Shown here piece by piece: positions 46,813-64,000 of a DNA stretch of 64,000 nucleotides. The stretch covers positions 32,001 through 96,000 of the forward strand of contig JBDREQ010000025.1 of NCBI GenBank assembly GCA_043819555.1. Reading direction: 5' to 3'. Each line of letters begins with the position of its first letter. The first letter of the stretch is position 1. Both the position numbers and the translations under genes were made by a program. This stretch comes from Candidatus Zixiibacteriota bacterium (GTDB taxonomy: Bacteria > Zixibacteria > MSB-5A5 > GN15 > JAAZOE01). The notes beneath the pieces are model-generated. The model was not told the DNA's origin. It saw nothing but the letters and a program-made list of their open reading frames with translations, and ran no database searches.

Positions 46813-46845
46813 AATGGCCGATGCCAATTTCGGCCATTTTTTTTT
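46813..46845 (+). terminator. Intrinsic terminator
   Basis: AATGGCCGA/TCGGCCATT stem followed by a T tract. Confidence 0.8.
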
Positions 46846-46965
46846 GCTTCAGATTCAAAATAATCTTAACCCGTCGTCTTTTGTCTGTAAGTCATTGGTA
46901 GGCGGGGATAAAAATCTATTTAAGCTAATGACCTTTTCCGTTTTTTTGAGTTAATTTACGGCATT

Positions 46966-47867: not shown

Positions 47868-48056
47868 ATGCTGACTATCGATTCAAGGACATGTCATGAA
47901 TGCGCCGGATGTATTTCGCTATGTCCGGATTTTGCCCTGTATTTAGATATTGATGGATTACAAGTCAGACAGGATGATTGTTCTTTATGCGAAATTTGCA
48001 TTGAGTTTTGTCCGGTCGGTTCATTAAAGGTTCAATCTCAAAATCTGCAAACCTGA
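47868..48056 (+). CDS. 2[4Fe-4S] ferredoxin
   Basis: CHECAGCISLCP and CSLCEICIEFCP. Confidence 0.92.
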   Translation: MLTIDSRTCHECAGCISLCPDFALYLDIDGLQVRQDDCSLCEICIEFCPVGSLKVQSQNLQT

Positions 48057-48066
48057 GGGGGCCGAT

Positions 48067-49242: not shown

Positions 49243-49243
49243 A

Positions 49244-49501
49244 TTATTCTGATTTTAAGCGTGCCATGGCTTTTGTCATACGTGATTTTAAGCGGGCCGC
49301 TTTTCTTTTGTGAATGACCCCTTTACTCCAGACTTTATCAATACTGGCATATGCCTTTTTTAGATCGACCTCTTCGCCGGTCGCAAGACTGGCCCTGGTG
49401 TCCTTTATAGTCTTTTTCAGCAGCGTCCGGATAGCATTATTCCGAACCTTATCATTTGCCGATTGGCGCAGCCGCTTGACGCATGATTTGTGATGTGGCA
49501 A
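49244..49501 (-). CDS. rpsT: 30S ribosomal protein S20
   Basis: MP.HKS..KR.RQ...N....IDK...KGVIHK.KAAR.KSR. Confidence 0.95.
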   Translation of the reverse strand: MPHHKSCVKRLRQSANDKVRNNAIRTLLKKTIKDTRASLATGEEVDLKKAYASIDKVWSKGVIHKRKAARLKSRMTKAMARLKSE

Positions 49502-49573
49502 AAAAATCTCCTTTCAATTTGCTCAATAAAGCCTCATAATATACATTGTATCGGAGTTCTGTCAAGAGACTAT

Positions 49574-51148
49574 ATGACAAAAAAAACGGGATTTACAATT
49601 TCATTTTCAAGGGTGGCTTCGGGGACTTTTTTATCCCGTTTGCTTGGTTTGGTCCGAGAACAGGTGTTTGCCCATCTTTTTGGCACCTCATTAGCGGCCG
49701 ACGCCTTCTTTGCGGCCTATCGAATCCCCAATCTGTTGCGTGATTTGTTTGCGGAAGGGGCTCTTTCTTCGGCCTTTGTTCCGGTATTTAAACAGGAATT
49801 TCAGGAAAAAGGAAAAGAACCGGCTTTTGAGCTGGCCCAAATCAGTTTTTCAGTATTAACGTTAGTGGTTTCGGTGGTATGTATTGTCGGGGCAATATTG
49901 TCGCCTTATCTGGTCAAAATAATTGCTCCTGGCTTTTCGGATATTCCCGGAAAAGCAGAATTAACGGGGCAGTTGACCGCTTATATGTTTCCCTTCCTAT
50001 TATTGGTAGCATTAGCGGCGTTGGCTATGTCAATTCTAAATTGCCTCGAAAAATTTGGAATACCTGCTCTGGCTCCGGCGATGTTTAATATCGGTGTTAT
50101 CACAGCCGCTTTAATAATCTGTCCATATCTTGAACGGCCGATTTTTGGTATGGCTGCCGGAGTCTTACTCGGTGGTTTGGGGCAATTTTTAATTCAGGTT
50201 CCGAGTTTGTATAAATCCGGTTTTCGATTTCGGTTTAATCCCCAATTCAATCATGACGGTTTAAAACGCATCGCCAGATTAATGGGTCCGATGATTGGGG
50301 GATTGGCCGCCGGGCGAATAAATATTTTCGTCAATACGCTTCTGGCTTCGCTATTAGCAGCTGGTTCGGTATCTTATTTGACGTATGCTTACCGGATAAT
50401 GCACTTGCCGCTTGGAATCATAGCGGTGGCGCTGGGTACCGTCGCCCTGCCCAAAGCGTCGGCATTAGCAGCGATGAATGATGAAGAGGGTTTGGTCAAA
50501 GTCTTCTATCGAGCAGTACATTTATGTTTTTTCCTGGTCTTTCCAGTCGCCGCTTTTTTCATAGTCGCCGGGGATGAAGTCATCGGTCTTTTATTTGAGC
50601 ATGGGCGATTCGTGCAAAATGATACCTATAATACTTATCGAGCCTTGATCTGGTTTAGCGTCGGGCTAATTGGTTTTGCCGGGGTCAGAGTTACCGCGCC
50701 AATATACTATGCCCTCAAAGACGCCGTTAATCCGATGAAATTTTCTATTTATGCCGTCCTTATAAATCTGGGTGCGAATTTTATTTTTGTCAGATTTTGG
50801 GATTTCGCGGGCCTGGCGGCGGCGACGGCTCTGGGGGGAATCGTTAATTTTGGATTACTTGTATTTTATCTTCCCAGTAAAATTAAGGGAGTAAGAATCG
50901 CCGCAGTTTCTGTTATGTTTATAAAATCAATTGTGGCGGCCGGTTTGACCGGATTTATTCTGTTATACATAAAAGGAATTAGTTGGTTTACCTCCCTTGA
51001 AAATACTTTTTTCGACCGCATTGAGAAAATTCTGATTTTAATTGCTGTCGCCGGACTTTGTTATTTGCTTTTTTCAGTTGTATTCAGGAATATTCCCCAA
51101 ATAAAAGAAAAACCAGCTTTCGATAAAAAAGAAAATGACAGCATTTAG
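49574..51148 (+). CDS. murJ: Lipid II flippase MurJ (MviN)
   Basis: SR.LGLVRE, ADAF..AYRIPN.LR.LFAEGA.S.AFVPV and S.L.YA.R...LP.G motifs. Start moved to ATG 49574; the ORF track starts at 49490. Confidence 0.95.
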   Translation: MTKKTGFTISFSRVASGTFLSRLLGLVREQVFAHLFGTSLAADAFFAAYRIPNLLRDLFAEGALSSAFVPVFKQEFQEKGKEPAFELAQISFSVLTLVVSVVCIVGAILSPYLVKIIAPGFSDIPGKAELTGQLTAYMFPFLLLVALAALAMSILNCLEKFGIPALAPAMFNIGVITAALIICPYLERPIFGMAAGVLLGGLGQFLIQVPSLYKSGFRFRFNPQFNHDGLKRIARLMGPMIGGLAAGRINIFVNTLLASLLAAGSVSYLTYAYRIMHLPLGIIAVALGTVALPKASALAAMNDEEGLVKVFYRAVHLCFFLVFPVAAFFIVAGDEVIGLLFEHGRFVQNDTYNTYRALIWFSVGLIGFAGVRVTAPIYYALKDAVNPMKFSIYAVLINLGANFIFVRFWDFAGLAAATALGGIVNFGLLVFYLPSKIKGVRIAAVSVMFIKSIVAAGLTGFILLYIKGISWFTSLENTFFDRIEKILILIAVAGLCYLLFSVVFRNIPQIKEKPAFDKKENDSI

Positions 51149-53372
51149 TTTTCGATTTCCCGCCATAATTGCCCTTACCGGAATCGTTGCCGGGACAATA
51201 CTGGGCAGGTATGCGGCATTAAATATGCCAGTGGTGACAGTCATTTTCATTGCCGCCTTGTTGCTTTTAATAATGACCTATTTTCGATTAGATACCCGTT
51301 ATTTTTCCGCTTCGTTGATTTTGTTTTTGTTGATCGGCTCTTATTTAATGGCGTCCCAGAAATATCAATATTTCGCCGCTGATGATGTCGGGCAATATGC
51401 GTCATCTTCAAGCTCTTTGAGATGTTTTGGCAAGATAGAAAAGTGGCCGGTTTTGAAGCAGCATAAGACTATTCTTACTTGCCGGGTCGACTCAATCATA
51501 GTTCAAGATTCAGTCCGGCCGGCATCCGGATCCATCCTGATAAACGTCCAAAGAGAAACGACTGAATTCATGCTGGGCGATGAAATCTCTTTTTCGGGAA
51601 GGTTATACATTCCGTCGGGAGGAAATTATCCGGGCCAATTTGATTATCGTGAATATTTGGAGAATAAGGGCATCAGGGCAGTTGTTTATATGTCAAATCC
51701 GGCTTTAATATTAAAGTTTGAAAAAGAAAGCAATATCTGGGGGAAGATAATATCATCACTCAGAAAATGGACGCTGGATTGTTTTCAATCTAACCTGACT
51801 GAAATACCCTATGCCCTGGCTTCGGGATTTTTAATAGGAGAGACCCGTGATATCCCGGAGGACATTTATCAGGCCTTTCGACGGACAGGGACTTTACATT
51901 TATTGGCCGTATCAGGCTCGAATGTCGCCCTGGTTTTAATTGTTTTTTCAGTATTTCTCAAGATATTCTCATTTAAAAAAATTACCAGGCTGTTAATACT
52001 TATATTGGTCATTGTCGTATTTTCACATCTATCCCACAATCAGCCATCCGTCATTCGCGCTTCGGTCATGGCTATCCTGATCATTCTTGCCAGGTTTTTG
52101 TACCGCCGGGCCAATCTCAACAATATTATCGCCGCCGCCGCATGTTTACTGATATTGTATGATCCTGCCAATTTATTTGATATCGGATTTCAATTGTCAT
52201 TTGCCGTTACATGGGGATTGATTTCCTTTCTGCCAAAGATAAATTCACTCCTGACCGGTAAGTCAATTCCTTCAGTTTATCGTTATTTATTATTGATAGC
52301 TTTGGGTTCGTTTATCGCGTCATTGGTATCGGCTCCGATAACTTTGTATTATTTCGGGGAAATGTCGCTGGTCACGGTGTTTTCCAATTTAGTGATTGTG
52401 CCGATGGTATCAGCCGCAGTCATCGGGATAATGATTCTTCTGGCGGTAAATTTAATTTTTCCACCGCTGACGCTTATCCCCGGCGTTTTTCTCGATCGCT
52501 TGCTAAGCCTTATCAATGATCTGGTTATCTGGTTTGGAAGTTGGGAGTTTTCATCAATAAGAACTGCTGAGGTCAGGGGCGAGTATTCTATCTTTGCGTT
52601 GGTGATTTTGACGATGTTATTTTTTGCAATTACTTCAAAAGCATTCCGCCGTTTATTGGTGTTTTCAATCCTGCTTGGGGGAATATGCTTTTTTGGTGAA
52701 GGACTTCTGGCGCGGGGAAAACCGATATCATCAATTGAAATTTATAATTGGGGAGCGGCCCAGAGTATTATTATCAATTCCTCAAATGCGGTGGCCATAT
52801 ATCATCAAAGCCGAGTGTCTCGATATGATGATTTTGGCTCTAATCTGATACCTTATTTAATCGATCGTGAGGAGTCGTTACCGGAAATATATATATTATT
52901 TGAACCCAAACATAGGACAATGCAAAGAATGGCGGAAGGAGCAGAATTCGGCCCTGAAATTGATTTATACCCGGTAAATGATTTCGATTTTTCCAATCCA
53001 TCAATCTGGACTAATACTGAAAAAAAACGGGTATTTGAAAACGAGACTTATAATGAGATTCAAATAGGCCACAATGTTGTCATCATTAATATACTCGATT
53101 CAATTGAAATAATAATTGCTAATTCACCGGTAGATTTTAACCGATTGCCCGAAAATATAATTGAACAGTGTAATTGGTATATAATTTTTGTAAATAGTGA
53201 CAAAAATCTGGCGGAATTAGCAGCTGTGAATGATATGGAAAAGGCAATAATTCTTCTTGAAAAACATAAAAATATTTACAAGATATTGCAGGATAATAAT
53301 TTTGATGAATTATATCCCGGACTGAATGACAAAATCACTTTACCGGGTTCAAATATTACGCTAATCCCCTGA
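51135..53372 (+). CDS. comEC: ComEC/Rec2 DNA-uptake channel (OB + Competence domains; degenerate C-terminal MBL)
   Basis: PG.FDY..YL, G..HLLAVSG.NV, PSV.RA..M and DIGFQLSF motifs. Confidence 0.88.
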   Translation: MTAFSFRFPAIIALTGIVAGTILGRYAALNMPVVTVIFIAALLLLIMTYFRLDTRYFSASLILFLLIGSYLMASQKYQYFAADDVGQYASSSSSLRCFGKIEKWPVLKQHKTILTCRVDSIIVQDSVRPASGSILINVQRETTEFMLGDEISFSGRLYIPSGGNYPGQFDYREYLENKGIRAVVYMSNPALILKFEKESNIWGKIISSLRKWTLDCFQSNLTEIPYALASGFLIGETRDIPEDIYQAFRRTGTLHLLAVSGSNVALVLIVFSVFLKIFSFKKITRLLILILVIVVFSHLSHNQPSVIRASVMAILIILARFLYRRANLNNIIAAAACLLILYDPANLFDIGFQLSFAVTWGLISFLPKINSLLTGKSIPSVYRYLLLIALGSFIASLVSAPITLYYFGEMSLVTVFSNLVIVPMVSAAVIGIMILLAVNLIFPPLTLIPGVFLDRLLSLINDLVIWFGSWEFSSIRTAEVRGEYSIFALVILTMLFFAITSKAFRRLLVFSILLGGICFFGEGLLARGKPISSIEIYNWGAAQSIIINSSNAVAIYHQSRVSRYDDFGSNLIPYLIDREESLPEIYILFEPKHRTMQRMAEGAEFGPEIDLYPVNDFDFSNPSIWTNTEKKRVFENETYNEIQIGHNVVIINILDSIEIIIANSPVDFNRLPENIIEQCNWYIIFVNSDKNLAELAAVNDMEKAIILLEKHKNIYKILQDNNFDELYPGLNDKITLPGSNITLIP

Positions 53373-53420
53373 AGTATCGGCCAAACCCAATATTTTGTGC
53401 TAATCTGTTAAAGATATCGG

Positions 53421-53448
53421 TAAAGATATATGACTTAAGTCCCGATAA
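53421..53448 (+). promoter_or_regulatory. Sigma28-like promoter of the DUF4388/Mgl cluster
   Basis: TAAAG-N15-CCCGATAA. Confidence 0.55.
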
Positions 53449-53518
53449 AAAGGAAAGAAATATTGGTTTACGGGCATTTTAAATTAATGCAGTCTAACAT
53501 ATTAATAGTTAAGGTGAT

Positions 53519-54730
53519 ATGGGACTATCAGGAAACCTAAAAACAGTATCGTTTTCCGATGTACTGCAATTGTTGTCAACAGGGAAGAAAACAGGCGTAC
53601 TTACAGTAGCAATGGGTGCGCGCAAAAAAGAAATCGCATTCTCTGGAGGCAATATTATAAGCGCCATCTCAGTGAACGCGAATGAGGATCTACTGGGAAA
53701 TTTGCTTTTAAAGCGTGGAAGAATCAATAAGAAAGATCTGGAGCGAGCAATTTCATTGCATAAATCTTCCGGCCGTGCTTTGGGAGCTACTCTTATTGAT
53801 ATGCAATTGTTTGACAAAGACGAAGTTTCCGAATGTTTGCGGATGCAAATCGAAGAAATTGTCTATAATCTTTTCAGCTGGGTCGATGGCGAATTTTCAT
53901 TCGCGGAAGGTGAATCTCCAAAGAACGCAACATTCCTGGTTAATTTGTCAACTATGAATATCATCATGGAAGGTACGCGGCGGATTGACGAATGGCTCGA
54001 AATACAAAAAGTTCTTCCGCCCAATGATATTTTATTGCGCGTCCGCTTGACTCCTAAAGTCAAAACAGAGGAAATAACGCTATCTCTTGATGAATTTAAA
54101 ATATTAACATTGATAAATGGAGAAAGAACCCTTCCGGAAATAATAGAGGTTTCTCCGGTGGGTGAATTTCCTACCTGCCGGGCATTGTATCGTCTCATTT
54201 TGGGTTCCCTGGTAGAAGGCGCCGGAAAAACCGCCAATGATAATATCGGACCGGATGAAGATGAAGAAGAAATAATCCTTGGCATTATTTTCAAACTATA
54301 CAACACCTGTTTTCTGAGGACGCGCAAAGTAATCGAGGAAGTCGTCGGGACGACTAATCCGGGGTATAGCAGGTTCATATCAAGTTTCAGGCAAGGGTTA
54401 TTGGTATTTTTCCCGGGATGTGATATGAGTACCGAGTCGGGACCGTCGCTTGAGAAATTTCTTCAGGAAGTTAAAAAAATTCCGGAAAAAGTCAGAATGC
54501 ATAGACTTCTCTCCATGTTAGAAGATATGTTGCACGAACAGCTTGAATATATATTTATGAATTTTGGATATGGAGCCTTTCGCACTGCGGTGGGAAAAGT
54601 CAAAAAAGAGATTTCCGAACCGCTGGCCATACGCCGTGAATTAGTAAAGAAATTCCGTCTTGATGATAATTTCTATTATTCCATCAAAAAGGCGGAGAGA
54701 ACTATAAAGATGATATCGGGTGACTCATGA
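53519..54730 (+). CDS. DUF4388 (PatA-N-like) domain protein with MshEN-like insert
   Basis: M.L.GNL..VS..DVLQLL...KKTG.L, LG..LL..G.I....L..A...H......LG..L and W.DG.F.F...MEG.RR.DEW. Confidence 0.8.
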   Translation: MGLSGNLKTVSFSDVLQLLSTGKKTGVLTVAMGARKKEIAFSGGNIISAISVNANEDLLGNLLLKRGRINKKDLERAISLHKSSGRALGATLIDMQLFDKDEVSECLRMQIEEIVYNLFSWVDGEFSFAEGESPKNATFLVNLSTMNIIMEGTRRIDEWLEIQKVLPPNDILLRVRLTPKVKTEEITLSLDEFKILTLINGERTLPEIIEVSPVGEFPTCRALYRLILGSLVEGAGKTANDNIGPDEDEEEIILGIIFKLYNTCFLRTRKVIEEVVGTTNPGYSRFISSFRQGLLVFFPGCDMSTESGPSLEKFLQEVKKIPEKVRMHRLLSMLEDMLHEQLEYIFMNFGYGAFRTAVGKVKKEISEPLAIRRELVKKFRLDDNFYYSIKKAERTIKMISGDS

Positions 54731-55095
54731 AGAATAAACTTGGATTGATAGGGATATTTGTGTTTACGCTAATAATGGTCGAATCGGCTTATGCCGCCGA
54801 TTTTAAGGTTCTTGGAAATGTTCCAGCCATAATCAATCTAGTGATATTGATAGGCGCCTTAGCTTGCTTATCGGTAGCGATAAAACTATTTGGGTTAGTT
54901 AAGGGCGGAGCTCTGGCCAAAGGCTGTCAAATGTGGATAATCTCGTTTATAACGCTGACAGCCGGTCAGGTTTTAATCCTCGCTCAGGAACTCAAGTTGT
55001 TCATTTTGACTTTCGATATAGCCGGGATATTGTATGTCGGAACAGTGATACTATGGCTCATCGGTCTCATGCATGCCCGCCGCGTTTTGGGTTAA
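54727..55095 (+). CDS. Small multi-TM hypothetical protein
   Basis: 122 aa, signal/TM plus 3 hydrophobic helices; its start overlaps the DUF4388 stop (ATGA). Confidence 0.7.
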   Translation: MKNKLGLIGIFVFTLIMVESAYAADFKVLGNVPAIINLVILIGALACLSVAIKLFGLVKGGALAKGCQMWIISFITLTAGQVLILAQELKLFILTFDIAGILYVGTVILWLIGLMHARRVLG

Positions 55096-55106
55096 GGTAA
55101 TTTTGT

Positions 55107-55135
55107 TTGACTCGAATGAAGCCATAGGCTATTAT
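55107..55135 (+). promoter_or_regulatory. Internal sigma70-type promoter
   Basis: TTGACT-N17-TATTAT. Confidence 0.55.
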
Positions 55136-55187
55136 CGATTGGATATGCGCAAAACAGAGATACTAAAACTTTGGATGGATCATAATA

Positions 55188-56093
55188 ATGATTGATCGGT
55201 CAAGTATTGATGAACGGATCGCCAAATGCAGCAAAATACTGGATGAAAATCCTGGCTCGCAGATTTTTGCTGCTTTGGCTGAAGCTCTCCGCAAAAAGGG
55301 CGACCTTGATAAGGCCTTTCGCGTTTGCCAGAATGGTTTGAAAATCCACCCCGACTATGGTTCGGGCCACCTGGTGATGGCGAAAATCAACATGGATAAG
55401 GGGATGTATGATTGGGCCGAAATCGAAGCGATGAGAGCGGTCGAACTTGATGGCGAAACTCGAACAAATGAATTGCTTCTTTCTGAAATATATATTTATA
55501 AGAACGAGTTTAATAAAGCCTGCCGCCTCCTGGAAAAACTTCATGAGAGTGATCCGGGAAATGAGCAAATAAAAAAATTGCTCGAAATTGCCAGAAAAAT
55601 ACCCCTTGAACAGCATAATCAGCCAAACTCAGATTATAGTGCGCCGACTCCGCTGGTTGTCAATGCGGGCGTTTCACCGGCATCTCGGGAACGCGAACAT
55701 TCGGCTCCGGTGCAGACCATGACTCAGGAAGCCCCTCCGGTTAAATCTGATTTGAATTATAGGCAAATGTTAAGAACCCTGGTTATTACACCCGGGATTG
55801 AAGGGATATTATTAATAAATAATGACGGACTTGTGATTGAGTCCATTTGGAATGTATCGGGCGATACTGATTTGGTCGGAGCGCTGGCGGTTGAAACGGC
55901 GCGGTTTACGACTATTCAAATGCGAGAAGTAGGGTTTGGGCATTTGCAGTCGATGATGTTAGAAACACCCAAGTCATTATACTATATGGTCGGTATAAAA
56001 GGCAGGTTGCTAACAATGATATGCACTGAATCAATAAATCTCGGATCTCTTAAAATGAAATTGAGCGCTTTGCTTCCCAGACTGATGCCGTAA
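55188..56093 (+). CDS. TPR protein with C-terminal Roadblock/LC7 domain
   Basis: NP.S.IFA.LAE..RK.G..D.A...C..GL..HP.Y TPRs, Pro-rich linker and PGI.GILLI..DGLVI...GAL...NLG.LK Roadblock. Confidence 0.8.
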   Translation: MIDRSSIDERIAKCSKILDENPGSQIFAALAEALRKKGDLDKAFRVCQNGLKIHPDYGSGHLVMAKINMDKGMYDWAEIEAMRAVELDGETRTNELLLSEIYIYKNEFNKACRLLEKLHESDPGNEQIKKLLEIARKIPLEQHNQPNSDYSAPTPLVVNAGVSPASREREHSAPVQTMTQEAPPVKSDLNYRQMLRTLVITPGIEGILLINNDGLVIESIWNVSGDTDLVGALAVETARFTTIQMREVGFGHLQSMMLETPKSLYYMVGIKGRLLTMICTESINLGSLKMKLSALLPRLMP

Positions 56094-56108
56094 CCAAAAG
56101 GATATAAT

Positions 56109-57080
56109 ATGGAGAAGAATATAAAAAATTTAATTCTGCTCGCATCGTTGATATTGGTTGTGATACCGATGGTAATTTTTCCCAATAAACTGGGATTGCC
56201 GTTATTGTCGGCATCGGTCTTATATTTGTTTTATGAAATGGCGTTCTACGGGATAGTACTTCATTTTTTCCGCAGGAATGTATCATTAATGACCATTTTG
56301 ATTGGCGCATCTTTAACAATGGTATTTCGCATTGGTTTGGGAGCCGCATTTGGCCTGGCCATTATAATTATGTACAGACTCGATAGCTCGGTTGCTTTTT
56401 CTCTTGGAATAGGCAAATATTTGCCGGCTATAATACTTCATGTGGTGGCAGCTCCTTATGTTTTGCGCCCGGCGTATTTGTATCTGGCATCAAGTTTAAC
56501 CCCGGAAAAAATGCCAAAGAAATTTGTCTTTGAACCCCATATAGAAGCAAAGGAAGTAATCTCCCCCGAAGTAAACGAATCTATTATGAAATTGCAGAAG
56601 AAGAATTTTAATGAAATAGATGCTGAAAAGCAGGCCTTTGAAGTTACATCGATTCCACATGGGGACGGCGATAATCAGCTGGAGCGGGCAGTACAATATA
56701 TTGGAGAATCAGCCGCGGTTAAAATGTCGCTTCTTATAGATGAAGAAGGTCTTACGCTCGCCAGATTTAGTCGTTGCGAAGAGGACATAGAATTGTGGGC
56801 TCCAGCCGCGATTGTCATTGAAAAAGAAAATCGAAGATTATTGAATCGTTTCAGTCCGATTGGAGAACCCAGTAAGCTGGATATAACGGCTCATGATAAG
56901 CGCATTATTTTGCGTCGGATAGAGAGATTGACTTTAATGATTATGGCAGAAGAGAATATTGACGAGACCATTCATATTAGAATGGCGCAGGCTGCGGATA
57001 TGATAAAAAAATATATCAATGCACGATACAGCCCGGCAATGTTTGCCAGGGTGGAGGAACAATATGTATCAAATTCTTGA
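56109..57080 (+). CDS. Multi-TM membrane protein with C-terminal Roadblock/LC7-like domain
   Basis: About 4 N-terminal TMs, then V..SLLIDEEGL.LA, a Roadblock beta-hairpin motif. Confidence 0.65.
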   Translation: MEKNIKNLILLASLILVVIPMVIFPNKLGLPLLSASVLYLFYEMAFYGIVLHFFRRNVSLMTILIGASLTMVFRIGLGAAFGLAIIIMYRLDSSVAFSLGIGKYLPAIILHVVAAPYVLRPAYLYLASSLTPEKMPKKFVFEPHIEAKEVISPEVNESIMKLQKKNFNEIDAEKQAFEVTSIPHGDGDNQLERAVQYIGESAAVKMSLLIDEEGLTLARFSRCEEDIELWAPAAIVIEKENRRLLNRFSPIGEPSKLDITAHDKRIILRRIERLTLMIMAEENIDETIHIRMAQAADMIKKYINARYSPAMFARVEEQYVSNS

Positions 57081-57414
57081 GGGATTAAACAAGACGAGCG
57101 GAATAATCGGAAGTATGGTAGTTGGGAGCGATGGAATTGTGATCGCGGCCGATCTCAATACGCAGATTGAAGAAGACGCGATTGGCGCCCTGGCTGCATC
57201 GATTATTTCCAATGTACAGAAATCGCTCGATCGTCTTCAATCACCGCCACTGAAACAGGTTACGGTGGAAGCTGACAATGCCAAATTATTTTTCAGTGAG
57301 GTAGAAATGGGTGTTTTGGTAGTTATTACCGAACCGGAAGTTAATATTGGTTTAGTTCGGCTTGAAATCAAAAACGCGACAAGTAAATTAAACAATCAGG
57401 AAGCAGTTTGTTAA
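57064..57414 (+). CDS. Stand-alone Roadblock/LC7 protein (MglB/MglC-like)
   Basis: G.IGSMVVGSDGIVIA...GALAA...NIGLVRLE. GGAGGA SD before ATG 57064; the ORF track starts at 57019. Confidence 0.85.
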   Translation: MYQILEGLNKTSGIIGSMVVGSDGIVIAADLNTQIEEDAIGALAASIISNVQKSLDRLQSPPLKQVTVEADNAKLFFSEVEMGVLVVITEPEVNIGLVRLEIKNATSKLNNQEAVC

Positions 57415-57424
57415 GAGATAATAC

Positions 57425-58585
57425 ATGGTATCAATAAATTACGCATCGAAAGAGGTTAGTTGCAAAATCGTTTATTACGGCCCCGGGTTATCGGGTAAAA
57501 CGACCAATTTGCAATATGTCCATGCGAAGGTACCTTCCAATACGAAGGGTAAATTGATTTCGCTGGCTACAGACGCCGATCGGACCCTGTATTTCGATTT
57601 TCTGCCGATAAATATTGGGAAAATTAATGGTTTTGACGCCAAATTTCAGCTCTATACAGTTCCCGGACAGGTTTATTACAACGCCACGCGGAAACTTGTT
57701 TTACGGGGAGCAGATGGTGTTGTCTTTGTGGCCGATTCGCAACCGGATAAACGGGACGAAAATATTGAATCGCTTAATAATCTCAAGGAAAATCTGGCAG
57801 AGTATGATTTTAAGATCGAGGAGATGCCGTTTGTCATTCAATATAATAAGCAGGACCTGCCGGGAGTTTTTAGCGCCGAAGAGCTTCATGCCTTTCTTAA
57901 TACAGGCAATTGGCCGGAGTTTTGTGCTTCGGCGACAGAGGGCTTTGGCGTATTTGATACATTAAAGTGTATCTTGAAACTTGTTCTGGATAAGGCAAAA
58001 TCGGCAGGAAATGTTACAAAGCCCGCCCAATCTGCCTCAATTCAGACTGCACCTCGAGCTACTTTTCAAACGTCTCCTACTCCAATTCATCAGCCAGAAG
58101 TACCTCAGGTGTCACAACCAGCACCGTTTGCTCAACCAAGACCGGCACCGACTTCTATGGTCCCGGATCAGCCGGTACAGACGATACCACGGCCGGTCAC
58201 TCCGGCAGCATCCATGATTCAAGATACGAAACGCCCCTCAGAACAGGTTGCGCGGCCAAATTTGGAGTCGGATGAGCCTGTTGAACGACCAGCTGTATTT
58301 CAGCGCGAGCCGGTTGAGCAAAATAATGAAAAAGCCCCGTCATACGAAGCGAATTACCGGCCTTTTCCTGGTAATACCGCTGATGATGAAAAACGCATGC
58401 AATTTTCTCATCAAAAACAAAGCGTCAATTCACATATAACTAAAGCCGAAACTTACAATCCGAGCATCGGGGATGAAGATAAGAATCATTCTTCACATCC
58501 TCAAATGGCGCCATCGCTGCGCGCTGAATCGACCGAAAAGCCCAAAAAGCGGTCATTCTTTAAGCGCTTGTTTGGATTAAAATAA
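57425..58585 (+). CDS. mglA: MglA-family small GTPase with long Pro/Gln-rich C-terminal extension
   Basis: INY...E..CKIVYYGPGLSGKTTNL (G1), DRTLYFDF (intrinsic Arg finger), TVPGQ (G3) and NKQD (G4). Confidence 0.93.
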   Translation: MVSINYASKEVSCKIVYYGPGLSGKTTNLQYVHAKVPSNTKGKLISLATDADRTLYFDFLPINIGKINGFDAKFQLYTVPGQVYYNATRKLVLRGADGVVFVADSQPDKRDENIESLNNLKENLAEYDFKIEEMPFVIQYNKQDLPGVFSAEELHAFLNTGNWPEFCASATEGFGVFDTLKCILKLVLDKAKSAGNVTKPAQSASIQTAPRATFQTSPTPIHQPEVPQVSQPAPFAQPRPAPTSMVPDQPVQTIPRPVTPAASMIQDTKRPSEQVARPNLESDEPVERPAVFQREPVEQNNEKAPSYEANYRPFPGNTADDEKRMQFSHQKQSVNSHITKAETYNPSIGDEDKNHSSHPQMAPSLRAESTEKPKKRSFFKRLFGLK

Positions 58586-58601
58586 AGGGGAGGAAATTCC
58601 C

Positions 58602-59090
58602 GTGAGTGATGATAGTCTGATATTATATGAGGAAGAGATCGAGCGGATTGATTCTTTATTGACCAAGTTATTAAAAGGAGCGGAAGCGAAATGCGCCCTA
58701 TTGGTTGATAAGGATGGCCATCTCATCACGCGCCAGGGTTTTACGCACTCCCTGGATACAACCGCGCTGGCGGCACTTCTGGCCGGCTCGTTCGCTTCAA
58801 CCAAAGAGATTGCCCGATTGGTTGGTGAATCAGAGTTCTCGGTCCTGTTTCATCAGGGCAAAAAAGACCATATCCACATGTCTATCGTGGGAGAACGTTC
58901 GATAATGGTTGTGATTTTTGATGATCGCACCACGATAGGAATGGTGCGCCTGTACGCCAAGGAAGCATCGGAAGAATTAGCCAAAGTGTTTGCGCAAATA
59001 ATGGATCGTCCTCAAGAGGATCATCCGGAAATGTCAGCCGATTTTGCAGCTTCGGCGGGCGATAAACTGGATGATATATTTAAGGATTGA
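58602..59090 (+). CDS. mglB: MglB Roadblock protein (GAP) with acidic C-terminal helix
   Basis: L..YEEE, LVDK.G.LI, DTT.LA.L.AG, EF...FH.G, VVIFD.RT..G.VRL and C-terminal LDDIF; closely matches Myxococcus MglB as recalled. Confidence 0.9.
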   Translation: MSDDSLILYEEEIERIDSLLTKLLKGAEAKCALLVDKDGHLITRQGFTHSLDTTALAALLAGSFASTKEIARLVGESEFSVLFHQGKKDHIHMSIVGERSIMVVIFDDRTTIGMVRLYAKEASEELAKVFAQIMDRPQEDHPEMSADFAASAGDKLDDIFKD

Positions 59091-59247
59091 CCCCGAGCAA
59101 AGAATTGATCGCGGCCGCCGCGGAAGGAAAGGCGCGGCATTGATATTTTATTTTAGAGCTTCGCCCCCTGGTTCCGCCCGCGTTCCGCGGATATAACACT
59201 GGGCACATCATACGGGAAAGTACTTATGCCATTATGGAGAGACATTA

Positions 59248-60945
59248 ATGTCCGCTGAATTAGGAACCATGCTGGTAAAGGCCGGCAAAATTTCCGAAGA
59301 TCAATTGGAAAAAGCGCTGGCCATGAAGGAGCAGAATAATGAATATTTTGGCGAAGCCCTCGTCAAAGTAGGAGCCATTGGCAGCGAAGAAGAGCTCTCC
59401 CATTTTATCAGCAAGCAACTGAATATGGGATCTTTGCGTCTTGCCGACGTAGAGTTAAATCCGGAAGTTGTCGCCCTGATTCCCAATGATATTGCCCGCA
59501 AATTTAATGTCATAGCCGTTTCAAAACTCAAGAAAATTCTTATTGTCGCGATTGCAGACCCTAATAATGTTTATGTTCTTGACGCTATAAAATTCATTAC
59601 CGGCTGTAATGTACAGCCGGTAATTTCTCCAGAAAACGCCATCACCAAGGCGATTGAAAAATATTATCGTTCAGATAGTGGGGTTAGCGCCATCCTCAAA
59701 GGTCTTGAAGACGAGGATGAACTTGAGGTTGTTTCTGTTTCCGACGAAGAGCTCAGCGAAATGGACTTGCAGTCGGCGGTTCAGGACAAACCATTGGTTC
59801 GCCTGGTCGATTCGATTATCAAAGAAGCCGTTCGCACCGGGGCCTCTGATATTCATATCGAAATGTACGAACGACGGATTCGCGTGCGCTATCGAGTCGA
59901 TGGCAACCTTAAAGAGATGGATCCTTTGCCGTTCAAATATCGGGCAGCAATTATATCTCGCATAAAAATCATGGCGGATCTGGATATTTCCGAACGGCGT
60001 TTACCTCAGGATGGGCGCATAAAAATTAAGCTCGACAATCGTACTGTTGACCTTCGTGTTTCCGTTTTGCCGACTATTTTTGGTGAGAAAGTGGTTATGC
60101 GAATTTTGGATTCGAATGCTTTAATGGTTGATATGACCAAACTCGGTTTTGCAAAGAACTCGCTGAAGCGATTCGATAACGCCATTCATTTGCCATATGG
60201 AATAATTCTGGTGACCGGGCCAACCGGTTCAGGTAAAACGACTACTCTTTATTCGGCTCTGAAGCAGATTAATACCGAGGGTATAAACATAATGACTGCC
60301 GAAGATCCGGTTGAGTTTAACTTTGACGGGATCAACCAGATCGCTGTCAAGTCGGACATCGGTTTGACATTTGCCAAAGCATTGAGGTCTTTTTTGCGGC
60401 AGGACCCCGACGTGATAATGGTCGGTGAGATTCGAGATAGTGAAACAGCGGAAATAGCCATCCGAGCGGCATTAACCGGGCACTTAGTTTTCTCGACTCT
60501 GCATACCAATGACGCTCCCTCATCGATAAACCGGCTAATTGATATGGGTATTCCCAACTACCTGGTATCTTCAGCAACGCGGTTGATTATGGCTCAGCGT
60601 ATGACGAGGAAAATTTGTATCAATTGCAAGAGGGGTTATACTCTCACCGATGAAGATATACAAAACCTTGACGTTCCCGAACACCTTATCACAACCCGGG
60701 ATATTTTTGAATCTCCCGGCTGCAATGATTGTAACGGAACCGGCCAATCGGGCCGTACCGGTATATATGAAGTTATGCCGGTTTCAGAGGTGATTGAAGA
60801 CTTGATTTTAAGAAGAGCAACTGATATTGAAATTCGCAATAAGGCAGTTGAAGAGGGGATGCTGACATTGCGCATGGCCGCCGTTGATAAGCTAATGAGC
60901 GGCTTAATCAGTCTCAAAGAAGTCTTTGCCGTAACTGGTACTTAG
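59248..60945 (+). CDS. pilB: Type IV pilus assembly ATPase PilB
   Basis: ASDIHIE, R.PQDGRI, GPTGSGKTTTLY, LRQDPD.IMVGEIRD, TGHLV.STLHTN and Zn-binding CxxC twice. Confidence 0.95.
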   Translation: MSAELGTMLVKAGKISEDQLEKALAMKEQNNEYFGEALVKVGAIGSEEELSHFISKQLNMGSLRLADVELNPEVVALIPNDIARKFNVIAVSKLKKILIVAIADPNNVYVLDAIKFITGCNVQPVISPENAITKAIEKYYRSDSGVSAILKGLEDEDELEVVSVSDEELSEMDLQSAVQDKPLVRLVDSIIKEAVRTGASDIHIEMYERRIRVRYRVDGNLKEMDPLPFKYRAAIISRIKIMADLDISERRLPQDGRIKIKLDNRTVDLRVSVLPTIFGEKVVMRILDSNALMVDMTKLGFAKNSLKRFDNAIHLPYGIILVTGPTGSGKTTTLYSALKQINTEGINIMTAEDPVEFNFDGINQIAVKSDIGLTFAKALRSFLRQDPDVIMVGEIRDSETAEIAIRAALTGHLVFSTLHTNDAPSSINRLIDMGIPNYLVSSATRLIMAQRMTRKICINCKRGYTLTDEDIQNLDVPEHLITTRDIFESPGCNDCNGTGQSGRTGIYEVMPVSEVIEDLILRRATDIEIRNKAVEEGMLTLRMAAVDKLMSGLISLKEVFAVTGT

Positions 60946-61080
60946 AACGCGAAATTTCTTCCAAACACCAACAAGTAATAATTGGAAATGGGGAATAGCC
61001 AATAAATTTGCCATATTGGCTCATTTGTTCAACTTGTTTAATCGCAATAACTTATTATTGGCGTTTTAAGTCGGTGTCAC

Positions 61081-61108
61081 TTAAGATTTTCAATACATTT
61101 ACCGATAC
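61081..61108 (+). promoter_or_regulatory. Sigma28-like promoter upstream of pilT
   Basis: TTAAG-N15-ACCGATAC. Confidence 0.5.
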
Positions 61109-61172
61109 AATTAATGATACGATAGAGGCGCAATTCCGCTGAATATATAGTCGCTTTACTTTAGGAGATAAC

Positions 61173-62249
61173 ATGGTAACGTTGAGGGATCTTCTCCAGG
61201 AAATGGTCAAGATGGGGGCCTCCGATTTACATCTTACGGTTGGTATTCCACCCATGGTAAGAGTGGATGGAAATTTAGTACGAATGGAGCACGAGGTTTT
61301 AACCGCTGAAATGACATTGAAGCTGGCTTACAGCATCATGAATGAAAAACAGCGGAAGAAATTTGAAGAAAACAATGAACTGGACTTGTCGTTTGGCCTT
61401 GAGAATTTGAGCCGATTTCGCTGTAATGTATTTCGTCAGCGCGGTAATATTGCCGTCGCATTGCGGCAAATTCCCTTTAAGATAAAAACTTTTGAAGAAC
61501 TGGGATTGCCGAAAGTTGTTTCCGATATGGCCAATTTACCACGTGGCCTGGTTCTTGTTACCGGTCCGACCGGTTCAGGAAAATCGACTACTCTGGCCGC
61601 AATGATTGATAAAATCAATCGCGAGCGGCATGAGCATATTTTAACTGTTGAAGATCCGATTGAGTATTTACACCGACACAATAATTGTCTGGTAAATCAA
61701 AGAGAAGTTTTCAGCGATACGCCGTCATTTGGTTCGGCTCTAAAATACGCGTTGCGTGAGGATCCTGATGTAGTCCTGGTCGGTGAGATGAGAGATTTGG
61801 AAACAATTGAAGCGGCATTAAATATTTCAGAAACCGGCCACCTTGCCTTCGCGACGCTGCATACTAACTCGGCCGCCGAATCGATTAACCGCATCATCGA
61901 TGTATTTCCGACCAATCAGCAGGAGCAGATACGAGTTACCTTATCTTTCACATTGCAGTCGGTTATCGCCCAGCAATTAGTTCCGCGCATGGGCGGCGGA
62001 CGAGTATTGGCGATGGAAGTGATGGTTTGTACACCCGCCATTCGCGCGATAATTAGGGATGATAAGATACATCAAATATATAGTATGATTCAGTCAGGAC
62101 AGAAATACGGGATGCGAACGATGAATATGTCTCTGGGCGAATTATACCGTACTGGAAAAATAACCCTGAATGACGCGACAGGGCGCAGTTCCAATCCGCA
62201 GGAATTGACAGAGCTATTATCGAAACAGCCATCGCCCGCATTTGCATAA
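61173..62249 (+). CDS. pilT: Type IV pilus retraction ATPase PilT
   Basis: ASDLHL..G.PP, GPTGSGKSTTLAA, EDPIE, ALREDPD..LVGEMRD.ET and AIRAIIR (AIRNLIRE-like). Confidence 0.96.
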   Translation: MVTLRDLLQEMVKMGASDLHLTVGIPPMVRVDGNLVRMEHEVLTAEMTLKLAYSIMNEKQRKKFEENNELDLSFGLENLSRFRCNVFRQRGNIAVALRQIPFKIKTFEELGLPKVVSDMANLPRGLVLVTGPTGSGKSTTLAAMIDKINRERHEHILTVEDPIEYLHRHNNCLVNQREVFSDTPSFGSALKYALREDPDVVLVGEMRDLETIEAALNISETGHLAFATLHTNSAAESINRIIDVFPTNQQEQIRVTLSFTLQSVIAQQLVPRMGGGRVLAMEVMVCTPAIRAIIRDDKIHQIYSMIQSGQKYGMRTMNMSLGELYRTGKITLNDATGRSSNPQELTELLSKQPSPAFA

Positions 62250-62261
62250 GGAGTAAATGGT

Positions 62262-63458
62262 ATGCCGGAATTTGAATATAAAGGTAAGACCCTGGCCGGG
62301 GTTCAAGTCAGCGGTACGTTAAAGGCCAAAAATCAGCAGGATATGGAAAGAATTCTCAGGCAGAATAGGATCCTGGTTTCCAATATTCGCAAAAAACCGA
62401 CTGATATCGCGATTAAATTCGGTACCGGAATAAAAAAGCAGTCCATTTCCCGCTTCACTCGACAATTTGCGACCATGATCGGCGCTGGTCTGCCAATGAT
62501 ACAATGCCTGGAGATTTTGGCTTCTCAGGTTGAATCGGTTGAGCTGCGCAAAGTTCTATACAAAGTCAAGGAATCAGTCCAGGGTGGTACGACTTTGGCC
62601 GACGCGTTGGCCCGCCATCCTAAAGTTTTTGACCAGCTTTATACTAACATGGTTGAGGCCGGCGAGATGGGTGGCGCTCTTGACGTAATTCTTGTTCGGT
62701 TGGCGGTTTATCGTGAAAAAGCCGACGCCCTGGTGCGCAAGGTTCGCGGGGCGATGATGTATCCGATTGTAATCAGCGTCGTGGCTACCGGCGTTACAAT
62801 TGCCATGTTAACTTTCGTAGTGCCTGTGTTTGCCAAAATGTTTGAAGGCCTTGGATCGGAATTGCCCGGACCTACTCTGGTCATTTTGGGAATATCGAAT
62901 TTTCTGGGATCAAAATTCATGTATATCATAGGCGCCATAATCGGTCTAATTGTTAGCTATAGGCTTTACGTCAAAACGCCCAAAGGCCGTTATAATGCCG
63001 ATAAGTTTTTTCTGGCGTTTCCGGTTTTGGGAACGCTTCTCAAGAAATCCGCGATTTCAAGGTTCGCACGTACCCTGGGAACCTTGCTCTCATCGGGTGT
63101 TTCGATTCTGGAAGCCCTTGATATTACCGCTAAAACGGCCGGTAACAGGGTTATTCATGATGCTATCAAAAAATCAGTGATATCCATTGCCGAAGGTGAT
63201 ACAATTACCGCCCCGTTGAAGGAAACCGGTGTTTTCCCTCCGATGGTAACGCAGATGATCTCGGTCGGTGAAAAAACCGGCGGATTGGATGAGATGCTCA
63301 ATAAGATAGCAGATTTTTATGATGAAGAAGTTGATGCCGCGGTAACGGCCCTGACATCGATTATTGAACCGGTGGTTATTGTATTTATGGGTGTGATAAT
63401 TGGTGGTATTTTGATTGCGATGTATTTACCTATGTTTGATATAATAGGAAAAATCTAA
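62262..63458 (+). CDS. pilC: Type IV pilus inner-membrane platform protein PilC (GspF family)
   Basis: FTRQ.ATMI.AG.P, AGE.GG.LD..L.RLA, A..YP, GE.TG.LD.ML.KIADFY and MYLPMF motifs. Confidence 0.95.
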   Translation: MPEFEYKGKTLAGVQVSGTLKAKNQQDMERILRQNRILVSNIRKKPTDIAIKFGTGIKKQSISRFTRQFATMIGAGLPMIQCLEILASQVESVELRKVLYKVKESVQGGTTLADALARHPKVFDQLYTNMVEAGEMGGALDVILVRLAVYREKADALVRKVRGAMMYPIVISVVATGVTIAMLTFVVPVFAKMFEGLGSELPGPTLVILGISNFLGSKFMYIIGAIIGLIVSYRLYVKTPKGRYNADKFFLAFPVLGTLLKKSAISRFARTLGTLLSSGVSILEALDITAKTAGNRVIHDAIKKSVISIAEGDTITAPLKETGVFPPMVTQMISVGEKTGGLDEMLNKIADFYDEEVDAAVTALTSIIEPVVIVFMGVIIGGILIAMYLPMFDIIGKI

Positions 63459-63465
63459 GCGGGTT

Positions 63466-63494
63466 AGGCGGGCCGGCCGGCCCGCCTTTTTTTT
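63466..63494 (+). terminator. Intrinsic terminator after pilC
   Basis: AGGCGGGCCG-GC-CGGCCCGCCT followed by a T tract. Confidence 0.8.
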
Positions 63495-63496
63495 GC

Positions 63497-64000
63497 ATGA
63501 GGTTGTCACAGGCATATCCGGGAATAAATGCAGGCTGGTTTGCGCCTCTTCGGCTGATGAATTTTTGCCTTATATTTTGGGGGATTGTCGGCTGGCTCGG
63601 GCTTCCCACGTATACACAAACTTCATTCTATTTATATTGCATTGCCACTCTGGCAGCTTTAATTTCGCTGGTATTTTTGCGCCGCACCGATTTTCGATTA
63701 CTATTTCGAGTATTGATTGCGCTGACTTTTGTCACTGAAATAGTCAATGAGGCTGGCATAGTTTATTCGACAGGGAGTCTTTATTCGCCGTTTTCGATCC
63801 TATTTTTACTGACAATTGTTTCATCGGCCATAGTTTATCGGCTGGCAGGAACACTGTTAATTGCCACCTGCGCCAGTTTTGCTTATGCGTTTGTGGCCTG
63901 GATAAATACAAATCTTCCAGTTCAGGAAAACCTGTTCTCACAGCCATTAGGTGGGAGTTTTCTAAACGCCGATGATGCCCATTTTTATTCGACCTTTTTA
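63497..64000 (+). CDS. PilS-like sensor kinase, N-terminal membrane domain (runs off window)
   Basis: Not in the ORF track because it has no stop. Translates MRLSQAYPG...IVYSTGSLYSPFSILFLLTIVSSA...; multi-TM with the TG...SPF..L motif, positioned after pilBTC. Confidence 0.6.
   Translation, partial: MRLSQAYPGINAGWFAPLRLMNFCLIFWGIVGWLGLPTYTQTSFYLYCIATLAALISLVFLRRTDFRLLFRVLIALTFVTEIVNEAGIVYSTGSLYSPFSILFLLTIVSSAIVYRLAGTLLIATCASFAYAFVAWINTNLPVQENLFSQPLGGSFLNADDAHFYSTFL

Follow-up and report, generated by a model that had tools for sequence, protein, structure and literature searches.

An expanded MglA/MglB and Roadblock gene module with a long-tailed MglA adjoins the type IVa pilus motor genes in Zixibacteria

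Introduction

MglA, a small GTPase, and MglB, its partner, are the model for how bacteria set and switch a front-rear axis, and a 64,000-nucleotide (nt) stretch of DNA from a Candidatus Zixiibacteriota bacterium raises the question of what such a pair does when it is encoded, together with several additional Roadblock proteins, in one row with the motor genes of a type IV pilus. The stretch, called the window here, covers positions 32,001 to 96,000 of contig JBDREQ010000025.1 (C25 in our numbering) of assembly GCA_043819555.1, which comprises 3.35 Mb in 79 contigs and is 97% complete. The Myxococcus MglA is a soluble protein, brought to the pole and to the pilus motor by a chain of species-specific adaptors.

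The row in the window is a real, conserved and apparently undescribed variant of the MglA/MglB system. Its MglA carries a long tail with a predicted membrane anchor, and three Roadblock proteins are encoded beside MglA and MglB. In the open-access literature we found no conserved mgl-pilBTC row, no membrane-fused or TPR-fused (tetratricopeptide repeat) Roadblock in an mgl module, no MglA with a linker and membrane anchor, and no paper on Zixibacteria together with MglA. On gene context and analogy, we narrowly favour the view that the row encodes a membrane-resident MglA/MglB switch that would control the pilus extension and retraction motors, probably via a PATAN protein.

Results

Organization of the module

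All long open reading frames (ORFs) from 51135 to the end of the window are on the + strand. A seven-gene module sits between comEC and pilB-pilT-pilC and has the following order (window coordinates; lengths in amino acids, aa):

53519-54730, + strand: PATAN/DUF4388 protein, 403 aa; Pfam DUF4388, 113 bits
54727-55095, + strand: small membrane protein, 122 aa, from hydropathy; no Pfam or NCBIfam family
55188-56093, + strand: TPR-Roadblock protein, 301 aa; TPR_2, 38.4 bits; Robl_LC7, 25.4 bits (cut-off 23), residues 195-267
56109-57080, + strand: membrane Roadblock protein with about four hydrophobic helices at its N-terminus, residues 3-130 (4TM-Roadblock), 323 aa, from hhalign, AlphaFold2 and Foldseek; no Pfam or NCBIfam match
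57064-57414, + strand: free Roadblock protein, 116 aa (longest ORF from 57019); Robl_LC7, 43.6 bits
57425-58585, + strand: MglA, whole gene, 386 aa; small GTPase, Arf, 33 bits
57425-58021, + strand: MglA G domain, residues 1-199, from phmmer against Myxococcus xanthus MglA
58022-58543, + strand: MglA tail, P-, Q-, A- and S-rich, about 175 residues, from the translation
58544-58585, + strand: MglA C-terminal basic, aromatic peptide KKRSFFKRLFGLK and stop codon; predicted amphipathic membrane anchor
58602-59090, + strand: MglB, 162 aa, GTG start, Roadblock domain and C-terminal helix region; Robl_LC7, 50.9 bits

An earlier reading of the DNA, made before any database search (the sequence-only reading), had described a co-oriented row of mgl, Roadblock and pilus genes, and all the genes it named were confirmed on the + strand. 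The gaps between successive module genes are -4, 92, 15, -17, 10 and 16 nt. The free Roadblock gene of that reading is real and its start had to be corrected: the most likely start is the ATG at 57064, as this Met is invariant in 25 homologues, and from there the gene overlaps the preceding stop codon by 17 nt.

Conservation of the row and its natural deletion

Two sets of relatives were compared. The nearest relatives came from the 80 best loci for relatives of the G domain and are the 19 with the pilus-linked arrangement. The phylum sample consisted of 16 genomes from 14 other families, 15 of which (13 families) have MglA. The linkage of the mgl and Roadblock genes to pilB, whose absence in relatives would have counted against the sequence-only reading, is conserved in 34 of 34 loci, and with this recurrence the row is not due to chance.

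The records of the 19 pilus-linked loci are titled Zixibacteria, some of them Ignavibacteria or Terriglobales, and all 19 have the free Roadblock, MglA, MglB and PilB in the same order. The TPR-Roadblock, 4TM-Roadblock, PATAN and ComEC genes are upstream wherever the contig reaches, and pilT comes next in 16 of the 17 loci with DNA past pilB (exception L022). Likewise, the row ComEC-PATAN-...-MglA-MglB-PilB is kept in all 15 MglA-bearing genomes of the phylum sample, with PilT and PilC next in 14 (exception L099). A profile of the 4TM-Roadblock protein matched 277 of 285 phylum genomes, 195 of 198 high-quality genomes and 19 of 20 families. Many of these matches carried a '1 TGA' flag; recoding was considered and rejected, as in the loci checked the protein stops a few residues early and the profile reads through a true TGA stop. 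Among the 8 of 285 genomes without a 4TM-Roadblock match, three (G001, G203 and G229) are explained by contig ends. A further one (G096, 77% complete) has no match to MglA or ComEC either and is accounted for by its low completeness. In another (G131, 96% complete, same order), neither ComEC nor MglA nor the 4TM-Roadblock had a match, and PilB had none at the level of an orthologue, the best being 43%; this genome represents either whole-block loss or an assembly gap.

One genus (three genomes, the sole family without the module) gave no match to MglA, although its PilB is an orthologue, with 64-65% identity. In its 96%-complete genome (G023, locus L102, G023:C30:50000-69000, reverse strand), ComEC is followed after 291 nt by PilB-PilT-PilC-kinase, and exactly the seven module genes are missing. 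A FastTree phylogeny of concatenated PilB, PilT and PilC (20 rows, midpoint root) nested this genus, itself a long branch, among three families that bear the module (support 0.997), and this nesting favours loss of the module as a block. The module behaves as one unit of gain or loss. As the genus keeps pilBTC, the motors do not need the module.

Outside the phylum, Sumerlaeota and Planctomycetota have free Roadblock-MglA-MglB with PATAN nearby, and a subset of Gemmatimonadota has PATAN-TPR-Roadblock-MglB-like-MglA. None of 12 such module-like loci had pilB, pilT or pilC within ~8 kb, which implies that the wider module is older than its junction with pilBTC. Among the loci seen, the mgl-pilBTC junction is particular to Zixibacteria.

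This pattern bears on a different account, in which MglA and MglB form a working switch whose target is another surface motility or secretion apparatus, pole identity or division, and in which the adjacency to pilBTC is frozen synteny. The genes murJ and comEC, without known tie to MglA, are kept in the row just as faithfully; the 12 loci of other phyla have no pilB, pilT or pilC match nearby; the module-less genus keeps pilBTC; and mglB and pilB are 157 nt apart. No terminator-like site lies between mglB and pilC, however, and the long PilBTC branch of the module-less genus is, as a weak sign, what a shift in constraint would produce once a partner is lost. In addition, the studied MglA systems covered by the sources cited here all act at least partly on type IV pili (Myxococcus and Bdellovibrio, PMC4316618; Thermus, PMC12024867), and Synechocystis PATAN domains are reported to bind PilB and PilC. 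On balance we regard a target other than the pilus as unlikely, and prefer a switch acting on the pilus motors.

MglA: G domain, tail and predicted anchor

The G domain of MglA matched M. xanthus MglA (6h17_A) with a phmmer E of 4.3e-77, collinear without a gap (3-196 to 3-196), and is 58-60% identical to myxobacterial MglA. Its motifs are a P-loop GPGLSGKT at 19-26, D52-R53-T54, TVPGQ at 78-82 and NKQD at 141-144. R53 and Q82, which we take to be the residue numbers of the arginine finger and the catalytic glutamine, occupy the same positions as in 6h17_A. At the level of sequence, MglA keeps every catalytic feature of the Myxococcus protein. A Thr that replaces the Asp usually preceding PGQ (T78 in M. 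xanthus numbering) is the hallmark of the MglA family (PMC3000849), and the roles of an intrinsic arginine finger and a catalytic glutamine in MglA have been described (PMC4316618). The P-loop (GxxxxGKT), NKxD, T78, R53, Q82 and coupled mglB are all features of Group 1 MglA; the G domain falls within this family, and the whole protein, at 386 aa, is longer than the single-domain ~195 aa of the group. This MglA is the only match in the 97%-complete assembly.

The sequence-only reading had missed that MglA is 386 aa long instead of ~195, and with it the most unusual feature of the row, the tail and its predicted anchor. Past the G domain there are ~190 further residues, ~180 of them disordered and of low complexity. 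MglA is 328-476 aa long in the 19 nearest loci. Its open frames in the other families (15 genomes) span 326-483 aa, which becomes 323-480 aa when counted from the start codon. The tails are unalignable among relatives, apart from an R-P-[YF]-P-G motif and the C-terminus. The motif is at residues 312-316 (58358-58372) and was found by eye in 14 of the 19 nearest tails, some of which have it twice; the neighbouring TPR domain, for instance, might dock at this candidate site.

The conserved tail end consists of a Lys/Arg run followed by aromatic and hydrophobic residues. The membrane-targeting tag of E. coli MinD is KGFLKRLFGG (PMC5471200), and the MglA C-terminus KKRSFFKRLFGLK is identical to it at 7 of 10 positions. 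The helical moment of the 10-residue core on the Fauchere-Pliska scale was 0.62, vs 0.55 for the MinD tag. On the same scale, the best window within the last 16 residues was among the top 2% of its own tail's windows in 30 of 34 homologues. A basic, aromatic C-terminal peptide was present in all 34 scored tails from 14 families. In the genome of the window, the C-terminal motif occurs once.

Low complexity and a lack of alignability between relatives might also point to an annotation artefact, with read-through or a fused ORF extending an ordinary cytosolic protein of ~195 aa. Despite the free divergence of the tail, however, no stop codon interrupts the frame between the G domain and the conserved C-terminal peptide in any of the 34 loci, 14 families share a terminal peptide of the same kind, and mglB begins 16 nt after the tail's stop codon. 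Long MglA forms are also common in metagenomes: at E up to 1e-20, at least 7999 proteins with lengths of 212-676 aa matched. The names given by their sources go no further than 'GTPase', 'MglA' or 'signal recognition particle receptor subunit beta'. A contig from an RNA library, moreover, spans the tail end into mglB. An artefact is highly improbable, and the tail is treated below as part of the protein.

In Planctomycetota (loci L071, L072, L076 and L080), MglA was 314-422 aa long in four of four loci, with a disordered tail ending in a hydrophobic, transmembrane-like helix; by this sequence feature, these homologues would be tail-anchored. A free Roadblock upstream, MglB downstream and a ~1050-aa PATAN protein nearby were observed in the same loci. 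A different anchor in Planctomycetota is what would be expected of a functional membrane tether. Two Sumerlaeota loci (L027 and L035) have a tailed MglA of 376-418 aa without evident anchor, the C-terminal part of which resembles a folded domain. MglA of Gemmatimonadota and myxobacteria has the usual short length.

MglB, gene order and MglA phylogeny

The MglB profile matched M. xanthus MglB (6izw_B) at E 4.6e-46 over positions 4-162. The score against NF052242 was 99.4 bits, below the equivalog cut-off of 200. By its sequence, the protein is a full-length MglB orthologue.

The order mglA-mglB, noted as unusual in the sequence-only reading, is indeed so. After loci L041 and L077 of the best 80 had been filtered out, 78 loci were classed: 49 have mglB-mglA, 19 have mglA-(tail)-mglB-pilB, 6 have mglA-(tail)-mglB without pilB and 4 are without an MglB match. 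An unrooted MglA tree was calculated with IQ-TREE from 79 rows including the window. The pilus-linked rows formed one clade (100/96), and all 49 mglB-mglA rows, together with three of the rows without MglB, formed a separate clade of 52 (98/86); the tailed MglA of Planctomycetota and Sumerlaeota were outside both. The tree supports a deep split, by which the tailed mglA-mglB forms with an upstream free Roadblock stand outside the mglB-mglA clade. As the tree is unrooted, no direction of change was drawn from it.

Three additional Roadblock proteins

Genome-wide, Pfam Robl_LC7 had three matches, all within this locus. The Roadblock fold was found in all three extra proteins, with a structure model for the membrane Roadblock and by profile for the TPR-fused and free ones. 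The membrane Roadblock, which had only been guessed at from the sequence, proved to contain the domain. Using an alignment of 19 sequences, residues 195-283 of the 323-aa protein matched the free-Roadblock profile (hhalign 96.3%, E 1.5e-9), vs only 39% for the MglB profile. Its AlphaFold2 model had a mean pLDDT (predicted local distance difference test) of 75.8, with helices at 3-23, 37-54, 60-89 and 93-130, a disordered linker at 135-186 and a domain of a-b-b-a-b-b-b-a topology at 190-306 with a pLDDT of ~90. The top Foldseek matches of this model were LAMTOR2/p14 (1veu_B, E 1.7e-7), Ragulator and MglB, and the template modelling scores by target were 0.83-0.84 for M. xanthus MglB (6hjm) and 0.86 for an Asgard Roadblock (9jue_C). 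A hydropathy scan of the module revealed hydrophobic segments only in the 323-aa and 122-aa proteins.

The TPR-Roadblock protein has N-terminal TPR repeats, a variable linker and a C-terminal Roadblock, and matched the free-Roadblock profile at 99% (hhalign, E 5.3e-18). The nearest proteins to the free-Roadblock profile itself were Asgard archaeal Roadblocks (7yh1, E 4.5e-17), vs E 1.2e-3 for M. xanthus MglB and E 0.011 for MglC (7ct3_A), which is itself very divergent. The sequence-only reading had emphasized one GTPase with four Roadblock proteins. All four are present; the novelty was overstated, as several MglB-like genes per MglA are already in print (PMC4316618, PMC11112851).

The PATAN protein and the small membrane protein

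The PF14332 match aligned residues 4-159 of the PATAN protein with profile positions 1-121, and this split match implies an insertion of ~35 residues in the PATAN core. In the AlphaFold2 model (mean pLDDT 78.5), a beta-rich core is interrupted by helices at 58-119 and followed by an alpha/beta part at 171-237, possibly a winged helix, and a helical part at 249-400. The insertion (~56-140) is MshEN/GSPII-like, with two hairpins. VIA-align matched it to MshE bound to cyclic di-GMP (c-di-GMP; 5htl_B, Z 9.8, root-mean-square deviation 2.8, 61 aligned residues, 31% identity, range 56-140) and to the GSPII-B domain of Thermus PilF with c-di-GMP (Z 8.4). The NCBIfam c-di-GMP_motif NF053729 scored 40.3 bits at residues 59-110, narrowly above its cut-off of 38.

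Compared with the c-di-GMP motif of Wang 2016, the 24+5+24 spacing and most hydrophobic positions are kept. The first Arg of the two motifs is replaced by L and A, respectively; in addition, H stands in place of the final Q of the first motif, and Q in place of G in the second. The family consensus has the same departures. Binding of c-di-GMP by MshEN is mainly hydrophobic, and changes of charged residues cost at most fivefold, as reported by Wang 2016. Because of the replaced motif residues, and despite the spacing and the fold match, we give c-di-GMP binding by the PATAN protein a chance of about a third.

Foldseek of the whole PATAN model against the PDB had no match at E <=0.001. Adenylosuccinate lyase rows in the same search, at a template modelling score of ~0.1, were discarded as meaningless. 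In VIA-align, the winged-helix-like part reached Z 6-7, and the helical part at the C-terminus matched phage baseplate and designed bundles with Z up to 8.3; both results were within the noise of the tool. A complex prediction for PATAN(1-170) with PilB(1-180), run without controls, scored 0.00 in both runs and is uninformative either way.

In Synechocystis, PATAN domains bind the N-terminal domains of PilB1 and PilC in yeast two-hybrid assays and set the direction of pilus-driven movement (10.1101/2021.06.11.447907). The same work of Han et al. describes the insertion as general to PATAN and present also at the N-terminus of PilB-type ATPases, reports that the PATAN domain alone localises to the membrane, and notes that mglA and mglB are often near PATAN genes. 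Two more PATAN/DUF4388 genes were observed in the genome of the window, one (G000:C3:136990-137463, in a 283-aa frame) with the same split match, implying the insertion, and the other (G000:C20:55293-55604) in a 733-aa frame.

The 122-aa protein has a signal-like N-terminus and about three hydrophobic helices, and its start overlaps the PATAN stop codon by 4 nt. It was present, by blastp, in 13 of the 18 related loci covering its position. An Atlas search found only unnamed Zixibacteria clusters nearest to it.

Pilus motor genes, comEC and transcription

The module is flanked by the following features:

51135-53372, + strand: comEC, 745 aa, the upstream neighbour outside the seven-gene module; Pfam Competence, 183 bits; DUF4131, 87.9 bits
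59248-60945, + strand: pilB, type IVa pilus extension ATPase, 565 aa; TIGR02538, 687.7 bits (cut-off 675.65)
61173-62249, + strand: pilT, retraction ATPase, 358 aa; TIGR01420, 507.1 bits (cut-off 319.1)
62262-63458, + strand: pilC, inner-membrane platform, 398 aa; T2SSF, 219.7 bits
63466-63487, + strand: terminator-like hairpin directly 3' of pilC, 9 pairs (8 G-C) followed by 7 T
63497-64000, + strand: start of a PilS-like sensor histidine kinase gene (573 aa in the contig); 6TM_PilS, 38.1 bits, PAS, HisKA and HATPase_c

PilB also matched T2SSE (457 bits), and its N-terminal MshEN/GSPII region matched c-di-GMP_motif (45.3 bits, residues 5-57) and MshEN (63.7 bits). PilC scored 501 bits against NF052606, below the equivalog cut-off of 700, and the NCBIfam PilC equivalogs were all below their cut-offs. 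From these matches, PilB, PilT and PilC are identified as a type IVa pilus motor set. The kinase identity of the pilS-like gene in the sequence-only reading was upheld; the gene runs past the window and is followed by a peptidyl-prolyl isomerase gene and housekeeping genes, not by pilR or pilMNOPQ. A pilM and a secretin gene are on another contig of the genome.

The gap between mglB and pilB is 157 nt, that between pilB and pilT 227 nt and that between pilT and pilC 12 nt. The hairpin after pilC is the strongest terminator-like site on the + strand in 53300-63600, and the scan of this region listed none in the mglB-pilB and pilB-pilT gaps. The mglB-pilB spacer has no stable fold (z 0.75), and no Rfam family was found over 48000-64000. 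A promoter scan gave 19 sites vs 21.7 expected and was uninformative. The spacing and the hairpin are consistent with the module and pilBTC being probably one transcript. In one metatranscriptomic run, 5 of 24 contigs were at least 99% identical to the window; they cover PATAN, the junction of PATAN and the small protein gene, the 4TM-Roadblock, the end of MglA with 34 nt of mglB, and MglB. This is a weak sign that the organism and these genes are present in an RNA library, and a contig spanning two genes does not demonstrate a single transcript.

The comEC gene is directly upstream of the module in every locus whose contig reaches so far, and in the module-less genus it immediately precedes pilB. 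Natural transformation involves type IV pili and ComEC jointly, and the switch might accordingly belong to a competence unit, gating a DNA-uptake pilus with the ComEC channel instead of serving twitching or polarity. A gap of 146 nt separates comEC from the PATAN gene, however, and murJ precedes comEC in the same conserved row, so the association may be plain synteny. Thermus mglA and mglB mutants are, moreover, altered in pilus position and not in pilus formation (PMC12024867, citing Salzer 2015). A dedicated competence role seems decidedly unlikely, the more general control of the pilus motors remaining the reading that we prefer.

Other features of the window

Upstream, at 3048-6509, genes for BshC (270 bits), a family 4 glycosyltransferase and a PIG-L deacetylase are in a row and resemble a set for bacillithiol biosynthesis. 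A protein with FG-GAP repeats and a C-terminal Por_Secre_tail domain, the sorting signal of type IX secretion, is encoded at 34559-36175 on the - strand and fits placement in the FCB (Fibrobacteres-Chlorobi-Bacteroidetes) group. Four ORFs of 168-865 aa at 42195-44789 (- strand) and 45033-47811 (+ strand) matched no Pfam family at E 1e-6.

Discussion

Proposed function

In the model that we narrowly favour, an amphipathic helix at the C-terminus of MglA, joined to the G domain by 130-290 residues of flexible tether, would hold the protein at the inner membrane, and MglB would turn it off as a GTPase-activating protein. The membrane-embedded, TPR-fused and free Roadblocks may together act as a platform at the membrane for the placing or regulation of MglA or MglB; we infer that the four Roadblock proteins are partners of MglA. 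The PATAN protein may pass the output on, its targets being PilC and/or the N-terminal domain of PilB, by analogy with the PATAN domains of Synechocystis. The outcome would be a bias to extension (PilB) or retraction (PilT), with the switch deciding where or when the type IVa pilus motors work. That MglA acts on pilus motors has a precedent in Myxococcus, where MglA recruits PilB via SgmX (PMC11580455), and by this analogy the module as a whole would act on the motors.

Several observations count against this model. Adjacency proves little in this phylum, where the same loci also keep murJ-comEC, an unrelated pair, upstream, and the retention of pilBTC by the module-less genus fits a regulator but also an unrelated neighbour. 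In 2 of 34 loci (the related L022 and L099), pilT and pilC do not follow pilB, though 5-6 kb of DNA continues. As to the anchor, the moment of the C-terminal 13-mer, which includes the leading lysines, is 0.22 on the Eisenberg scale vs a shuffle mean of 0.37, and 77% of shuffles reach this value. A signal emerges solely when the 10-residue core is scored on the Fauchere-Pliska scale, and even so the moment does not peak at the C-terminus in 4 of 34 tails. The contigs of the metatranscriptomic run are short and of low depth, and RNA libraries can hold DNA. The pilBTC parts of that run match only at lower identity (pilB/pilT pieces below 90%); these pieces, like the stretches without cover, were not used as evidence.

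Comparison with known systems

The closest known system is the polarity module of M. xanthus (MglA, MglB, MglC, RomR/RomX and RomY, with the pilus branch SgmX/FrzS/SopA on PilB). The two share the catalytic residues of Group 1 MglA, a full-length MglB, an extra Roadblock paralogue beside MglB, a TPR protein and an expected output on the PilB/PilT motors. In contrast to M. xanthus, the order here is mglA-mglB, the genes are in one row with pilBTC instead of apart from them, MglA has a ~190-residue tail with a predicted membrane anchor, and the Roadblock complement is larger by three proteins, two of them fusions (with four membrane helices and with TPR repeats, respectively). Orthology of the free Roadblock to MglC is not evident, its match to MglC (E 0.011) being far weaker than that to Asgard Roadblocks (E 4.5e-17).

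The actinobacterial conservons (CvnA-D) and Group 3 MglA systems, which have one or two MglB genes, are likewise conserved multi-gene operons with an MglA GTPase, one or more Roadblocks and a membrane component (PMC4316618). They differ from the module described here, which has the Group 1 features R53, T78 and Q82, no CvnA-type kinase or CvnC, and pilus-motor neighbours.

The PATAN regulators of cyanobacterial phototaxis, PixE, PixG and their relatives, which bind PilB1 and PilC, have the same two-hairpin 'alpha-clip' insertion and are tied genetically to the pilus motor. Unlike PixE and PixG, the PATAN protein of the window has no receiver domain, its winged-helix-like and helical C-terminal parts are without clear structural match, and it is partnered with MglA/MglB and not with a chemosensory system. 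The novelty of the link between PATAN and mgl genes was overstated in the sequence-only reading, as the link is already in print: the neighbourhood was recorded by Makarova 2006 and by Wuichet and Sogaard-Andersen 2014 (PMC4316618). The latter source lists PATAN as an occasional neighbour of Group 1 and Group 5 MglA, in neighbourhoods that otherwise 'vary widely'.

With the MinD-type targeting sequence, the MglA tail shares a short basic, aromatic C-terminal peptide of comparable helical moment on the Fauchere-Pliska scale. In contrast to MinD, the peptide here belongs to a Ras-like GTPase and not to a ParA/MinD ATPase, and a long disordered linker precedes it.

The sequence-only reading had also drawn a parallel to the eukaryotic Rag-Ragulator system. 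The resemblance in design stands: like Rag-Ragulator and the C-terminally anchored Ras/Rho/Rab proteins, the module combines a small GTPase at the membrane, several Roadblock subunits of which one is membrane-attached, and a variable linker with a C-terminal anchor. The parallel does not extend to the C-terminal Roadblock domains of the Rag GTPases, which dock on Roadblock heterodimers attached to a lipidated scaffold, as MglA has no such domain and its tail is disordered. Unlike in Ras/Rho/Rab, the anchor would be a peptide or helix and not a lipid. The likeness to Ragulator is an analogy only, since the LAMTOR2 fold matches in Foldseek were no better than those to MglB. A bolder proposal, which we consider rather doubtful, is that in Zixibacteria, and with a different anchor in some Planctomycetota, MglA is permanently membrane-tethered, its conserved G domain being followed by a hypervariable linker with an amphipathic or transmembrane anchor, and works on a membrane-embedded Roadblock platform wired directly to PilB/PilT/PilC; this would be a bacterial counterpart, independent or very old, of the variable-region-plus-anchor design of Ras/Rho/Rab and of the Roadblock scaffold of Ragulator.

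The organisms carrying this module are uncultured, and a whole phylum keeps it as a compact, self-contained version of the MglA/MglB system, with a predicted anchored GTPase, three extra Roadblocks, PATAN and the motors in one row. If the favoured model is true, the row names the minimal set of parts with which control of PilB and PilT by a GTPase could be reconstituted, and joins the work on MglA acting on PilB in myxobacteria with that on PATAN acting on PilB and PilC in cyanobacteria. A Ras-like switch anchored by a variable linker and a C-terminal anchor would then not be confined to eukaryotes.

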